Shown piece by piece: positions 7,811-31,081 of a stretch of DNA of 41,103 nucleotides. The DNA is from Escherichia phage Henuyfy11N. The notes under the pieces are model-generated. The model made no database searches and was not told where the DNA came from. It saw only the letters and a program-made list of their open reading frames with translations. The translations under genes and the position numbers were made by a program. The stretch is taken from sequence record PV696613.1; one strand, 5' to 3'. The first letter of the stretch is position 1. Each line of letters opens with the position of its first letter.

Positions 7811-7838
7811 AATTATTTCCTCAGTAAGTTACATGTGA

Positions 7839-7867
7839 ATAGTACCCTATTATATTGGGGTGTGCAA
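7839..7867 (-). promoter_or_regulatory. sigma70-like promoter, family 2 (TTGCAC-N17-TACTAT) with AATAG-N4-CTATT dyad
   Basis: minus-strand sequence CTTGCACACCCCAATATAATAGGGTACTATTCAC, near-identical to promoters at 29570 and 31024; about 30 nt upstream of ORF start 7810. Confidence 0.5.
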
Positions 7868-7974
7868 GTAGTGTGCTAGAATAAGTTTGCGCCTAGTGTC
7901 GCACACGAAAAGCGGGTGGTTCCCGCCTGGCGCATTAACCATAACCAGTAACCTCTTAACCAAAGGACTAAAGA

Positions 7975-8391
7975 ATGAAACTTTCTGATTTCTATTTTGC
8001 CGACCGCCACGCCGCCGGTACTAAAATGCCTATCCTTCTGCCCAGTGGTAAAGATTCCGGTGAATGGTTGCAGGTCATCGGCCCCGATTGTGACGCTGGT
8101 GTTCGTGCGGGCCGTGCCTACACAACGGCAATTCGACGCCTTACGGAAGAACTTGCGCCATTAGATAAAGAGTGCGAGGCGCTGAATAACTGGGCGCGCT
8201 ATAATGATGAGAAGGGCTGGCGGGTGATGGACCTGAACAAGCAGCTTGCCGTGGAAATCGTCACCGGTTGGTCATTCGACGAACCATTCAGCAAAGAGGC
8301 GCTTGCTAACCTGTTCGACCAGTACAGTGGGTTGGCAGAGGCCGTAGTTAAGCATCACACCGATAGCCGTGAGAAACTCTCGGAAAAGTAA
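7975..8391 (+). CDS. tail assembly chaperone (lambda G-like by position)
   Basis: 138 aa ORF immediately upstream of tape measure gene; overlapping -1 frame ORF at its 3' end. Confidence 0.5.
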   Translation: MKLSDFYFADRHAAGTKMPILLPSGKDSGEWLQVIGPDCDAGVRAGRAYTTAIRRLTEELAPLDKECEALNNWARYNDEKGWRVMDLNKQLAVEIVTGWSFDEPFSKEALANLFDQYSGLAEAVVKHHTDSREKLSEK

Positions 8392-8753
8392 AAGCGCTGT
8401 ATGAATTTGCGCAATGGTGCTTTGTCGACCGCCACAAACGTAAGCAATTCGACGACATCGCGGCGGGCCACCAGGCGGCTTTGATTGCAATGGGCGTGAT
8501 TAAAGAACCGCAGATGAAAGAAGCGACGGGGCCGGAATGCCCCGTTTCTCTTATCGACGTGTTCGAGAAATACCGTGCCATTAAATTCCTACAGCGCGAA
8601 ACAGATGATACTATCGTTATAATCCCGCGCGATGCGCTCAAATGGCAAGATTTGGTAGCGTTTCGTGATGTCGCCGGTTACGGCATAAGTTTGTTCGAAG
8701 CCGAGGTTATCATGGGCTTAGACGGAATATTTGAGGGCAGAGAAGATGGCTGA
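8373..8753 (+). CDS. -1 frame extension of tail assembly chaperone (GT-like fusion product)
   Basis: -1 frame is open from 8373 and overlaps last 19 nt of upstream ORF; G-GAA-AAG heptamer at 8382-8388 resembles lambda G-GGA-AAG slippery site; no canonical start codon with SD. Confidence 0.4.
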   Translation, partial: ETLGKVKALYEFAQWCFVDRHKRKQFDDIAAGHQAALIAMGVIKEPQMKEATGPECPVSLIDVFEKYRAIKFLQRETDDTIVIIPRDALKWQDLVAFRDVAGYGISLFEAEVIMGLDGIFEGREDG

Positions 8754-11055
8754 TACGGCTTCCCTAATTGCCAGAGTAAAAACAGAAGGCGCTGATGTAG
8801 CCGCTAAACAGCTTGACGCTATGGCGGCATCCGCAGACCGTGCGGACACATCCGTAAACAAACTAACGCCGGATGTTAATAAAGTAAACTCCGCTACGTC
8901 TAAAGCGGCTTCTGACGGTTTCGCTAAATTCCGTAACGCCGCCGGGCAGGTAGGCTTCCAGGTGCAGGACATGGTCGTCCAGTTGCAGTCCGGCACGTCT
9001 GCATTCGTAGCAATCGGGCAACAAGGCTCTCAGCTTGCGGGTGCTTTCGGCCCTGGTGGCGCGGTGCTTGGGGCTGTAATTGCTCTCGCATCAGCAATTG
9101 GCGGTGTCCTGTATAAATCACTAACGGAGGCCGAAGGTAGCTCAAAAGACCTCGAGGCCGCGCAAAAGCAGTTAAAAGACACCTTCCAACAAACGGCATC
9201 CGGCTCTCTCGAACTGACAGACGGCCTTATCCAGCTTACCCAAATAAGCCGAGAAGCGGCGGAGACTCAACTTGCTTTGGCTAAGGCTAACGCAGACCTT
9301 ATCGCGCAGCAAACAGCTAAAGCCGTTCGTGAGGACGCAGAGTCGTGGGAGACGTGGAAAGCCTCCACGGCATCAGCTATCAGCCAGTACGATGCATTGG
9401 TCTCTAAAGGTGCGGATGTAGGCGACACGTTAGAAAAACTCGGTGGCACTTACGAGGGTAACATCGTAGGCGTCAACATGCTGGCGCAGAATATCGCAGA
9501 GCTTAGCAGTAAGTTTGGGGTTAACCGTGACCAGGCGCTGGAGATGATAGCGGCGCAGAGTGCGTTTAACAAAGAGCCAACCGCCGAGAATGCCCGTCGC
9601 ATCGCCGATGTGTTTACCGACTGGCTCGGTAATACAAAACAGTTGAACCCGGAACTTATCCGCCTGACCGACAATGCCAACAAGAACGCCACGGCACTGG
9701 AGAACGCGGAGAAGTCCGCAAACGCGGCGGCGGAGGCCCAAAAGAATCTTGGTCGTAACGTCAACTCAACAACGCAGAGATTCCAGGAACAGAACGAAGC
9801 TATCGTCAAAAACCAGCAAATCGCTATCTTAAGTGACCGCGAGCGTATCCGTGCGCAAGCTGAACTGGATAAGCAGGCGTTCGCTAAACGTGAAGCTGTC
9901 ACCAAAGAACAGATCGCCGCGTATAATGCTGCGCGTGACACGGAAGCACAACAAGACATCGCTCGCATCGACGCTACCGAAAAAGCGAAGGCCGACCGCG
10001 AGGCCAAATCGAACGAGAAACGGCTGGCGGCACAAGCCAAACGCGAAGAAACGGCGGCTGAACGACAGAAAAAAGCGGCGGAAGATTTCCTGGCTACTGT
10101 CGACCGCACAACCGGAGATGAGATTTCGCGCATTACCGCTGCGGAAGAGCAGAAACTGGCAAAACTGGAAGAGTTTAACAGAGCTGGGACTATAAGCCAG
10201 CAGCAATACGAAAACGCCAGGACGCAGATTATGCTCTCGGCCGAACAGGCCCGCCAGGAAGAACTCGCCAAGCGAGAGAAAGAACGACAGGAGAAGAACC
10301 AGAAAGGCGAAGACTTCATGGCTCAGATTATGGGCCAAAACGCCGCTGAGCTTGAGCTTCTGGAGATTCAGGAGCAACAAAAACTGGACGTTGCTGACAG
10401 GTATCGCGAACAGAATCTGATTAACGAAGAACAGTACCAGGCCGCGGTTAATGCTATAAATGACCAGTACGCGTTAAAACGTGCTAACGCAACGGGTAAC
10501 GCTTTTGGCATGATGGCGGATAATATTAAATCGTCGCTTGGCGAAGCGTCTACTGCGTACAAAGCTTTCGCTATTGCGCAGGCCACTATTGCCACATACA
10601 CCTCCGCTATAGAGGCTTATAAATCTGCATCGGCTATCCCTATTGTTGGATGGGTGCTCGGGCCTGTAGCCGCCGCCGCCGCCGTAGCCGCGGGGCTCGC
10701 AAACATTGGCAAAATTCGTTCGGCCCGTGAGCAGGGCGGTAACTTAGCTGCAGGTCAGTTATCTACTATCGCGGAACGTAACAAGCCAGAAGTTATTATG
10801 CCTGCAGGGGCGTCACGCGTCCGTACCGCAGAACAGATGCGCCAGATTATGGGCGAGAACGGCAACAAGTCAGGCGGTGACAGCGTTACAATCGTCAACA
10901 ACACCACCGGACGTGTTGATTCCGCCGTTACAGAGCGTGACGACGAAGGGCGGTTACGTGTTATCATCAGCGAAACAGTATCGGCGGCGTTACAAGACAG
11001 CAACAGTGCAATCTCTAAGTCACGCCGTGCTACACGAAACCAGCCGGGGTATTAA
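8746..11055 (+). CDS. tail tape measure protein
   Basis: about 770 aa, long Ala/Gln/Glu/Lys-rich coiled-coil segments, hydrophobic segment near C-terminus (IPIVGWVLGPVAAAAAVAAGLANIG); follows chaperone pair. Confidence 0.7.
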   Translation: MADTASLIARVKTEGADVAAKQLDAMAASADRADTSVNKLTPDVNKVNSATSKAASDGFAKFRNAAGQVGFQVQDMVVQLQSGTSAFVAIGQQGSQLAGAFGPGGAVLGAVIALASAIGGVLYKSLTEAEGSSKDLEAAQKQLKDTFQQTASGSLELTDGLIQLTQISREAAETQLALAKANADLIAQQTAKAVREDAESWETWKASTASAISQYDALVSKGADVGDTLEKLGGTYEGNIVGVNMLAQNIAELSSKFGVNRDQALEMIAAQSAFNKEPTAENARRIADVFTDWLGNTKQLNPELIRLTDNANKNATALENAEKSANAAAEAQKNLGRNVNSTTQRFQEQNEAIVKNQQIAILSDRERIRAQAELDKQAFAKREAVTKEQIAAYNAARDTEAQQDIARIDATEKAKADREAKSNEKRLAAQAKREETAAERQKKAAEDFLATVDRTTGDEISRITAAEEQKLAKLEEFNRAGTISQQQYENARTQIMLSAEQARQEELAKREKERQEKNQKGEDFMAQIMGQNAAELELLEIQEQQKLDVADRYREQNLINEEQYQAAVNAINDQYALKRANATGNAFGMMADNIKSSLGEASTAYKAFAIAQATIATYTSAIEAYKSASAIPIVGWVLGPVAAAAAVAAGLANIGKIRSAREQGGNLAAGQLSTIAERNKPEVIMPAGASRVRTAEQMRQIMGENGNKSGGDSVTIVNNTTGRVDSAVTERDDEGRLRVIISETVSAALQDSNSAISKSRRATRNQPGY

Positions 11056-11058
11056 CCA

Positions 11059-30507: not shown

Positions 30508-30510
30508 TTT

Positions 30511-30711
30511 ATGGGTGAGTGGATTAAGTGTAGTGAGATGCTGCCAGGTAATGGGTATACGGATAAAGAGTTCCTGGTGTATGAAACGTTAAATAACGCA
30601 GTTCAACACGATTATTACATAGTTCCTGATGACGGGAGAAAGCCTTTCTGGAATCACTACGATAAGTACGTGACGCACTGGATGCCGTTACCCGAGCCGC
30701 CAGAAGTGTGA
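30511..30711 (+). CDS. DUF551-like phage protein
   Basis: C-terminal HWMPLPEPP and N-terminal WIKCSEMLP resemble the DUF551 signature as I recall it. Confidence 0.45.
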   Translation: MGEWIKCSEMLPGNGYTDKEFLVYETLNNAVQHDYYIVPDDGRKPFWNHYDKYVTHWMPLPEPPEV

Positions 30712-30845
30712 TGTTCAATAGTTTGGGATTTTACTGAGTGACTTACGCTGCTACACAGCAGCGTACAACTTTAACTTAGTGTCGTCAAAAAGCGACACTT
30801 TCACCAAACGCAACAATAGAAGCGACTATTGCAGGAGATGCAACA

Positions 30846-31016
30846 ATGAAACTGAATGACATCGTAACCTGGACTGGTAGAAACGGAGAAAAGCGATTCG
30901 GGCTTATTGTTGCGTCAGACGGCAACAAGTACCGTGTTATGCGATGGCGTCAGTGGGCACGACGCCCGAGGTACTACTGGATTCGTGGCGAACGATTATC
31001 TTTAAAACACCAATAA
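30846..31016 (+). CDS. small hypothetical protein (56 aa)
   Basis: ATG after SD AGGAG; Arg/Trp-rich. Confidence 0.3.
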   Translation: MKLNDIVTWTGRNGEKRFGLIVASDGNKYRVMRWRQWARRPRYYWIRGERLSLKHQ

Positions 31017-31023
31017 AATTTAC

Positions 31024-31052
31024 TTGCACACACGGATATAATAGACTACTAT
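31024..31052 (+). promoter_or_regulatory. sigma70-like promoter, family 2 (TTGCAC-N17-TACTAT) with AATAG-N4-CTATT dyad
   Basis: CTTGCACACACGGATATAATAGACTACTATTCAG; about 30 nt upstream of ATG 31082. Confidence 0.5.
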
Positions 31053-31081
31053 TCAGTTATCGAAACGAGAGGAGAGAGAAG

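Follow-up and report, generated by a model that had tools for sequence, protein, structure and literature searches.

An inverted repeat in the early and middle promoters of an Escherichia Kagunavirus as the candidate operator of a Cro-like phage repressor

Background

The genome sequence of Escherichia phage Henuyfy11N (PV696613.1), analyzed here as a single window of 41,103 nucleotides, carries a 14-bp inverted repeat, AATAG-N4-CTATT (AATAGNNNNCTATT), that recurs in promoters. The question raised by this dyad is whether it forms part of the promoters themselves or is the binding site of a regulator and, in the latter case, whether the regulator is encoded by the host or by the phage. A preliminary description of the window had proposed the repeat as the operator of a phage regulon. 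The comparative analysis reported here points to the operator of a dimeric phage repressor, most likely a Cro-like protein of the XRE family, placed in sigma-70-type promoters of the early and middle genes; taken as a whole, this statement is given slightly better than even chances.

The source DNA is the near-complete genome of a Kagunavirus (Guernseyvirinae, Sarkviridae), a strictly lytic Escherichia coli siphovirus. The region of the XRE gene was 100% identical to that of Escherichia phage BUCT789, and 14 kb of the window aligned at 96% identity with Kagunavirus PDP21P8. Approximately 460-480 related records were found, chiefly Salmonella Jerseyvirus and Escherichia Kagunavirus, two groups that are among the commonest isolated candidates for phage therapy and food biocontrol. 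The comparison set consisted of 11 complete genomes and 43 loci from IMG/VR, the conservation of the dyad was followed over approximately 60 related genomes and loci, and approximately eight lineages were sampled in the lineage comparison.

Enrichment of the dyad and its placement in promoters

The preliminary description had listed six perfect copies of the dyad and an imperfect copy at 26141-26154 and had proposed a genome-wide motif scan with shuffled-sequence controls. All of these copies were recovered at exactly the same coordinates (Table 1), and in the scan the six perfect copies compared with 0.04 expected and with a maximum of one in 100 dinucleotide shuffles. When up to one mismatch was allowed, 11 matches were obtained (1.0 expected), including the copy at 26141-26154 (AATATGGTACTATT). 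AATAG-N4-CTATT also headed an unbiased enumeration of all perfect dyads in the window, the remainder of which were terminator hairpin stems. Non-coding sequence makes up 8.8% of the window and holds five of the six perfect sites; the sixth, at 20307, falls in the final codons of the VRR-NUC gene upstream. A variant with a longer center, AATAG-N6-CTATT, was found in three copies, all in coding sequence, and was judged to be due to chance.

The perfect copies lie in promoters of two families, both of which were confirmed as first described. Family 1 comprises three minus-strand promoters (TTGACA or TTGACT-N17-TATAGT), which are the three best sigma-70 matches of the region; the dyad occupies spacer positions 5-17 and its final T is the first base of the -10 hexamer. 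In family 2 (TTGCAC-N17-TACTAT, on either strand), the right half-site is located inside the -10. A third register is provided by a weaker copy with one mismatch at 33849 (ACTAGTTGACTATT, ACTAG-TTGA-CTATT), which wraps the -35 of its promoter and is conserved, the Jerseyvirus equivalent being AATAGTTGACTAGT (AATAG-TTGA-CTAGT). Relative to the hexamers, the dyad is offset by 6 bp between the two families and by more at 33849. Because it occurs in three registers with respect to the -35 and -10, the dyad was regarded as a module of its own, distinct from the promoter consensus. The earlier claim that the dyad stands in every early promoter held for most of the recognizable promoters; the conserved promoter at 29196-29168, which precedes the helicase-primase operon, was found to lack it.

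Promoter alignments of 88 family-1 and 77 family-2 non-redundant sequences from Kagunavirus and Jerseyvirus were compared position by position. The half-sites were invariant, and their ten positions were as informative as the -35 and -10 hexamers; the central bases in family 1 were almost free and the flanks drifted. Position -1 was T in 44 of 44 Jerseyvirus half-sites, which extends the dyad to 16 bp in that genus, and T or G in Kagunavirus. Sites orthologous to 7838 are kept in Kagunavirus genomes. The imperfect copies are likewise conserved as imperfect: the site at 26141, in the promoter of the XRE gene, retains its mismatch across Kagunavirus, shows two mismatches in Jerseyvirus, and has a counterpart with one mismatch in Pantoea phage AH01; Jerseyvirus also keeps the imperfect copy AATAGAGTACGATT. 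This conservation suggests graded affinities. Conserved half-sites, a free center, and three registers fit a dimer acting in trans and not a promoter element.

The same motif has been reported under a different name. For Kagunavirus fBC-Eco01, seven 'phage RNA polymerase promoters' were predicted with PHIRE, with the consensus tgAATAGTa-ccTATTat-T (PMC9825357); this is the motif of the dyad, at approximately seven copies per genome. Seven PHIRE promoters were also reported for phage Golestan (PMC7203180). According to such an assignment, the repeat would be a promoter element in its own right, either the promoter of a phage RNA polymerase or a spacer or extended -10 feature recognized by the host enzyme, and the overlap of the right half-site with the -10 in family 2 speaks for it. 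However, the phage RNA polymerase to which the PHIRE papers assign the sites is not encoded by these phages: none was annotated in four related records, and no such Pfam domain was present in the window open reading frames (ORFs) of at least 416 amino acids (aa) that were tested. In addition, all copies are within good sigma-70 promoters, the position of the dyad shifts among them, and the motif is symmetric, not an asymmetric block at a fixed distance without host hexamers. The host polymerase is also too conserved to account for the lineage-specific half-site switches described below. A promoter element is therefore hardly credible as an explanation. The fBC-Eco01 report did not discuss the dyad symmetry, the surrounding host-type promoters, or a regulator (PMC9825357). 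If the operator reading is right, the dyad shows that PHIRE motif calls in phages that have no polymerase of their own can be operators.

Lineage-specific half-sites

The generalized dyad AWTAS-N4-STAWT was enriched 7- to 13-fold in the promoters of Kagunavirus, Jerseyvirus, phiEap-2, AH01, TS33, and Cornellvirus, and the use of half-sites was specific to the lineage. In the window, 12 of 12 half-sites are AATAG. Enterobacter phage phiEap-2 has AATAG/AATAC dyads in family-1 and family-2 promoters (four copies, 0.08 expected), and Pantoea phage AH01 has seven AATAS sites (0.12 expected), with AATAC in 13 of 16 half-sites. Seven mixed AWTAS sites were found in Hafnia phage TS33, one of them around the -35 of its XRE promoter, and Serratia phage Otaku has AATAG in one family-1 promoter and a one-mismatch copy in a family-2 context. 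Cornellvirus-type genomes have an enriched promoter dyad of their own, TATTA-N6-TAATA (three copies, 0.03 expected). In the frame of the dyad, this sequence reads ATTAS-N4-STAAT: the geometry is the same and a single position of the half-site differs. The half-sites are mainly ATTAG/ATTAC, with some AATAC. Jerseyvirus and Cornellvirus share Salmonella as host and differ in their operator (AATAG versus ATTAS). Because the half-sites change in concert within a lineage, even where the host is shared, a phage-encoded trans factor was favored.

The same comparison bears on the possibility that the binder is a host protein conserved in Enterobacterales (a transcription factor or a nucleoid protein), which the phage would exploit. 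Phages of E. coli, Salmonella, and Serratia all have the same AATAG core although their own regulators have diverged, as a conserved host protein would predict. Against it stand the two operators used on the one host Salmonella and the switch of nearly all AH01 sites to AATAC; furthermore, a host protein bound to the spacer or -10 of promoters so close to consensus would act as a repressor of the phage. No E. coli factor is known to have the consensus AATAG-N4-CTATT, and the sites of OxyR (ATAG-N7-CTAT) and TrpR (ACTAG-N4-CTAGT) differ from it in spacing or bases. A host factor was considered very unlikely. The proposal that the dyad is an operator was thus supported by invariant half-sites, three registers, and lineage-specific changes, and the dyad is very probably an operator bound by a phage-encoded protein.

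The XRE protein as the predicted binder

Four candidate binders had been named at the outset, and of these the XRE-family protein encoded at 26185-26400 was favored. The 71-aa product matched HTH_3 (PF01381) with an E-value of 6.5e-13 (49 bits, cut-off 23), and its best match among solved structures was 434 Cro, equal to it in length (E-value 1.7e-6; residues 6-68 aligned to 4-64). 434 Cro binds 14-bp dyads. The XRE protein is present in every dyad-bearing lineage and is the sole recognizable DNA-binding regulator among the proteins common to all of them; no other DNA-binding protein was found among the shared core proteins. It is among the fastest-evolving core proteins (35-49% identity, versus 60-80% for structural and replication proteins). 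The gene is located at a divergent promoter pair that has a perfect operator (26097) on the partner and a one-mismatch operator (26141) on its own promoter, an arrangement that recurs in AH01, and no separate alternative dyad was found near it.

Distinct classes of XRE protein are found with the operator variants AATAG, AATAC, and ATTAS. Alignment of the XRE proteins showed an invariant Q28 (434 numbering). Residue 32, which closes helix 3 on its inner side, changes together with the innermost base of the operator: N or T is found with G, G with C, and S with mixed bases. In 434 complexes, it is this end of the helix that is turned toward the inner base pairs. As a sign of XRE binding, this covariation is suggestive only. 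RNA sequencing (RNA-seq) of Kagunavirus K1B4 classed a 'specific DNA binding' gene beside the AAA helicase as a middle gene (PMC12645636), which is consistent with the XRE protein as the regulator.

Several observations weigh against this assignment. The covariation extends over only approximately eight lineages and is not clean at every position. Four of seven positions of the XRE recognition helix differ between Kagunavirus (SQGAINQ) and Jerseyvirus (SQSLITH), both of which use AATAG, and Jerseyvirus and Cornellvirus have the same residues (Q,S,H) at positions 28/29/33, which make the contacts in 434, yet Cornellvirus uses ATTAS. In 434/P22-type proteins, such changes of the recognition helix usually alter specificity. 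Klebsiella phage VLCpiS11a has the XRE protein and no AWTAS dyad, with a different spacer dyad, ATATGA-N6-TCATAT, that may be a re-specified operator, and the Otaku total is one perfect and one near copy. Repression of all replication promoters in a lytic phage would have to be partial or late, which the model assumes, and an activating or dual role of the binder is possible. With these points taken into account, the XRE protein was considered reasonably likely to be the binder of the dyad; given binding, repression would be the probable outcome.

Other candidate binders

The AlpA-like protein of the preliminary description is a 56-aa HTH_17 protein (28965-29135) encoded by the first gene of the helicase-primase operon. 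Expressed from its own dyad-less promoter, it might repress the dyad promoters as a symmetric dimer, in the manner of RacA or D29 Gp36. Throughout Kagunavirus and Jerseyvirus, the two genera with a strictly AATAG dyad, its sequence identity is 86-100%; seven Cornellvirus-type loci, all devoid of the AATAG dyad, lack it, and its promoter is both conserved and dyad-less. The fold model is a winged helix (predicted local distance difference test, pLDDT, 78) whose nearest structures are the RacA-DNA complex, BldC, and phage Xis. RacA recognizes a 14-bp inverted repeat in the form of a symmetric dimer, and the lytic phage D29 encodes a small MerR-like repressor, Gp36 (PMC12266134). In the K1B4 RNA-seq data, a gene with a helix-turn-helix (HTH) domain is among only four early genes, its identity as HTH_17 being uncertain (PMC12645636).

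This protein was initially the favorite and was demoted on two grounds. AH01, phiEap-2, TS33, and Otaku have the same dyad family and promoter architectures without an HTH_17 homologue detectable by tblastn or profile hidden Markov model (the best E-value was 0.06, in terminase HTH regions), and the allele of phage K1G, with 71% identity and the recognition helix SPMTLNRW versus TRRTLNNW, coexists with the same six perfect dyads. Moreover, the HTH_17 family was not found outside Kagunavirus and Jerseyvirus, since a large protein search returned only relatives of at least 79% identity and tblastn returned none elsewhere, and the helicase-primase context of the gene equally suits a role in replication. 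HTH_17 as the binder is accordingly rather improbable. The classical geometry of MerR activation (19-20 bp spacer, weak promoter) also differs from that of the dyad promoters, which have spacers of 17 bp (18 bp in some orthologues) and hexamers near consensus.

A divergent HTH_17 allele is carried by K1G (36454-36621), an otherwise typical Kagunavirus, and by approximately 20 other records in the 60-80% identity band, which suggests allelic replacement of the gene.

The remaining two candidates, a NinH-like protein and the product at 6288, were both rejected. The HTH segment of the NinH-like protein is well conserved across dyad types (Kagunavirus/Jerseyvirus and Cornellvirus), and the protein was undetected in AH01, Otaku, and VLCpiS11a. 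The product at 6288, which had been called an HTH protein, proved to be metallophosphatase/exonuclease-like (PHROG 'DNA repair exonuclease'), its N-terminal HTH being a weak match only, and it is absent from Otaku, phiEap-2, TS33, VLCpiS11a, and Cornellvirus. A remark in the K1G record notes the similarity of the 6288-type phosphoesterase to T1 and Era103.

Another phage protein might bind the dyad, or two regulators might share it (XRE and HTH_17 in Kagunavirus/Jerseyvirus), or the sites might serve activation or the loading of an antiterminator. The restriction of strictly perfect AATAG sites to the two genera with HTH_17, with looser sites elsewhere, would agree with a shared site, and antiterminators of the Q and AlpA types load at DNA sites within promoters. 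On the other hand, no further DNA-binding protein was found to be shared, the promoters, being close to consensus and having 17-bp spacers, need no activator, and the helix-turn-helix of HTH_17 starts at residue 2, which leaves it without the N-terminal segment of AlpA. Together, these variants were regarded as unlikely.

Proposed mode of action and relation to known systems

With the XRE protein as repressor, the following course of infection is envisaged. As infection begins, host RNA polymerase would fire the strong promoters of the early and middle genes, family 1 heading the replication and recombination operons and family 2 the small-gene blocks and the phosphoesterase island. The XRE protein would be made from its own weak promoter, with only a one-mismatch operator, and on accumulating would bind the 14-bp sites as a dimer, occluding the spacer and -10 in family 1, the -10 in family 2, and, more weakly, the -35 at 33849. 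The replication, recombination, and small early operons would be turned down together, as by Cro at PL and PR in lambdoid lytic growth, and the helicase-primase/HTH_17 operon would escape XRE control in Kagunavirus and Jerseyvirus.

Besides the size (71 aa) and significant sequence similarity of its small HTH_3 protein, this arrangement resembles 434 Cro and repressor in its 14-bp dyad with conserved outer bases and a free center (ACAA-N6-TTGT at OR/OL of 434), in operators that overlap core promoter elements, and in graded sites with a weak one on the regulator's own promoter; by analogy, the expected role would be to turn down early transcription in lytic growth. It differs from the lambdoid switch in that the phage lacks a CI partner, an integrase, and a lysogeny module. 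No integrase or CI was annotated in the related records, and the gene divergent from XRE encodes a 172-aa acidic protein with no Pfam match. Moreover, single sites are scattered over at least seven promoters in three registers, not gathered in two tripartite clusters, the half-site is AATAG, not ACAAG, and binding is in this case a prediction.

Mycobacteriophage D29 offers a parallel, being a strictly lytic siphovirus that damps its own early and late transcription via a small phage-encoded HTH protein, Gp36, of the same fold class as the HTH_17 of the window (PMC12266134). Gp36, however, acts on GC-rich direct repeats in one region, whereas the site here is an AT-rich inverted repeat found at many promoters, and its binder is probably not the MerR-like protein. 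Bacillus subtilis RacA, the top structural match of the HTH_17 model, has a small MerR-like domain and 14-bp inverted-repeat ram sites (PMC12266134), but it is a chromosome anchor and not a promoter regulator, and its sites are GC-rich; the resemblance bears only on HTH_17 as the binder. Other genome papers of this phage group state that a repressor or Cro is lacking (PMC12919940, PMC5217580). Judged from the sequences, the regulon is most likely a Cro-type repressor system of a familiar kind that has been overlooked or mislabelled in these phages.

If correct, this would be the first coherent transcription map of the family, with host-polymerase promoters in two or three architectures and one Cro-like repressor. 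The AATAG, AATAC, and ATTAS variants would constitute a compact natural set of orthogonal operator/repressor pairs for engineering, and XRE or operator mutations would offer a simple handle for tuning or attenuating these phages. A more speculative and doubtful extension is that the operator-regulator pair acts as an 'immunity type' among lytic phages. The resident XRE protein would then shut the early promoters of a superinfecting relative with the same operator, half-site switches (AATAG, AATAC, ATTAS, and the VLCpiS11a dyad) would record escape from cross-repression, and HTH_17 in Kagunavirus/Jerseyvirus might read the same perfect dyad as a second, earlier-acting layer.

Table 1. Coordinates of the dyad copies, promoters, and candidate regulator genes in the window
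Feature	Position	Strand	Sequence, context, and genes driven
Gene for 71-aa XRE/HTH_3 protein, 434 Cro-like	26185..26400	+	HTH_3 PF01381, 434 Cro match
Gene for 56-aa HTH_17 (MerR/excisionase-like winged-helix) protein	28965..29135	-	PF12728, E-value 2.1e-7; first gene of helicase-primase operon
Operator copy, perfect	7838..7851	.	AATAGGGTACTATT on minus strand; over -10 of family-2 promoter
Operator copy, perfect	20307..20320	.	Spacer of family-1 promoter; last codons of VRR-NUC gene
Operator copy, perfect	23960..23973	.	Spacer of family-1 promoter
Operator copy, perfect	26097..26110	.	Spacer of family-1 promoter divergent from XRE gene
Operator copy, one mismatch	26141..26154	.	AATATGGTACTATT; over -10 of XRE gene's own promoter
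Operator copy, perfect	29586..29599	.	Over -10 of family-2 promoter
Operator copy, perfect	31040..31053	.	Over -10 of family-2 promoter
Weaker operator-like copy, one mismatch	33849..33862	.	ACTAGTTGACTATT; wraps -35 TTGACT of promoter 33854-33882
Family-2 sigma-70-type promoter	7839..7867	-	TTGCAC (7867-7862), N17, TACTAT (7844-7839); minus-strand island 7810-5895 (108-aa ORF, metallophosphatase/exonuclease-like 376-aa protein, small ORFs)
Family-1 promoter	20302..20330	-	TTGACA-N17-TATAGT, 11/12 consensus matches; 84-aa ORF, 63-aa ORF, SNF2-type helicase (18361-19785)
Family-1 promoter	23955..23983	-	TTGACT-N17-TATAGT; SSB/annealing protein (23268-23897), DNA polymerase I (20936-23209)
Family-1 promoter	26092..26120	-	TTGACA-N17-TATAGT; 172-aa protein (25542-26060), 90-aa ORF, PD-(D/E)XK nuclease (23988-25244)
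XRE gene promoter	26125..26153	+	-10 TACTAT (26148-26153, as in family 2); weak -35 CTTTTC
Family-2 promoter	29570..29598	+	TTGCAC-N17-TACTAT; plus-strand small-gene block starting 29633
Family-2 promoter	31024..31052	+	TTGCAC-N17-TACTAT; plus-strand small genes up to holin and endolysin (33033-33569)
Promoter	33854..33882		TTGACT-N17-TATATT; after terminator behind lysis genes
Dyad-less promoter of HTH_17 operon	29168..29196	-	TTGATT-N17-TATACT; kept in Kagunavirus and Jerseyvirus

Further observations on promoters and dyads

Two host-type promoters are annotated in the PVP-SE2 record at the place orthologous to 26092-26120. The family-2 promoters share a long upstream block, CTTGCACACCCCAAyrT (7862-7880, 29560-29585, and 31014-31039; TTGCGTAACCCAAyAT in Jerseyvirus). 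This block exceeds the needs of a -35 and could reflect recent duplication or a second recognition element. A family-1-like promoter on the reverse strand at the family-2 sites (TCGATA-N17-TATGTT) was rejected because the conserved 5' leader and Shine-Dalgarno region probably account for it; immediately downstream, at 29497-29477, there is a terminator.

In the Kagunavirus locus L005 (position 38567) and approximately seven other Kagunavirus loci, a perfect AATAG-N4-CTATT was found outside any promoter, adjoining the hairpin tacgctgctgtgtagcagcgta and repeated ggtgtaacagg motifs. The ATATGA-N6-TCATAT dyad of VLCpiS11a is located at 1906 and 34821 in the spacer of TTGCAA-N17-TATAGT promoters, with tgttggTTGCAA before the dyad.

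Other conserved elements of the window

A second conserved dyad, GAATAAnTTATTC, is perfect at 512-524, where TTGACA and the hairpin CCGGGTGGCCCGG come directly after it and the scaffold and capsid genes lie downstream, and has a one-mismatch copy at 40832-40844, before the spanin region. Both copies are flanked by GGAATA/TTATTCC repeats (470-511 and 40790-40831). The dyad is nearly invariant in Kagunavirus, Jerseyvirus, phiEap-2 (four copies), TS33, and Cornellvirus, and nine matches with at most two mismatches were counted (1.5 expected). The region is a candidate for the control of late genes, separate from the XRE-type operator.

The 5' leader of the SSB/annealing protein gene (23897-23955, minus strand) carries the hairpin CACTGGCCGGGCAGCTCCCGGAG, the core of which, cactggccgggcag, recurs in Kagunavirus, Jerseyvirus, Cornellvirus, and TS33, and more loosely in phiEap-2, AH01, and Otaku. 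The hairpin had no Rfam match, the Rfam scan of the window having returned none at all, and could be a translational or autoregulatory element.

Between the promoter at 29586 and that of HTH_17, the interval 29197-29510 contains two terminator-like hairpins (29497-29477 and 29322-29300) and a block, AATGTCAATAGGTG, that is kept in both genera; the plus strand reads TTGACA. The 85-aa ORF annotated in this interval has a TTG start and is poorly conserved, and the interval may represent a small plus-strand transcript or non-coding region rather than a gene.

The window is 332 bases longer than the BUCT789 record (40771 bp) and shows small indel differences from it. No second copy of its first 40 bases occurs further on, and the additional length is hence not an obvious terminal duplication.

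Finally, the 63-aa protein encoded at 19782-19973 (minus strand) shows 95-100% identity between Kagunavirus and Jerseyvirus, a value far in excess of the average for the genome. It is absent from all other lineages and had no significant match to a Pfam family, and it looks like a small beta-rich domain.

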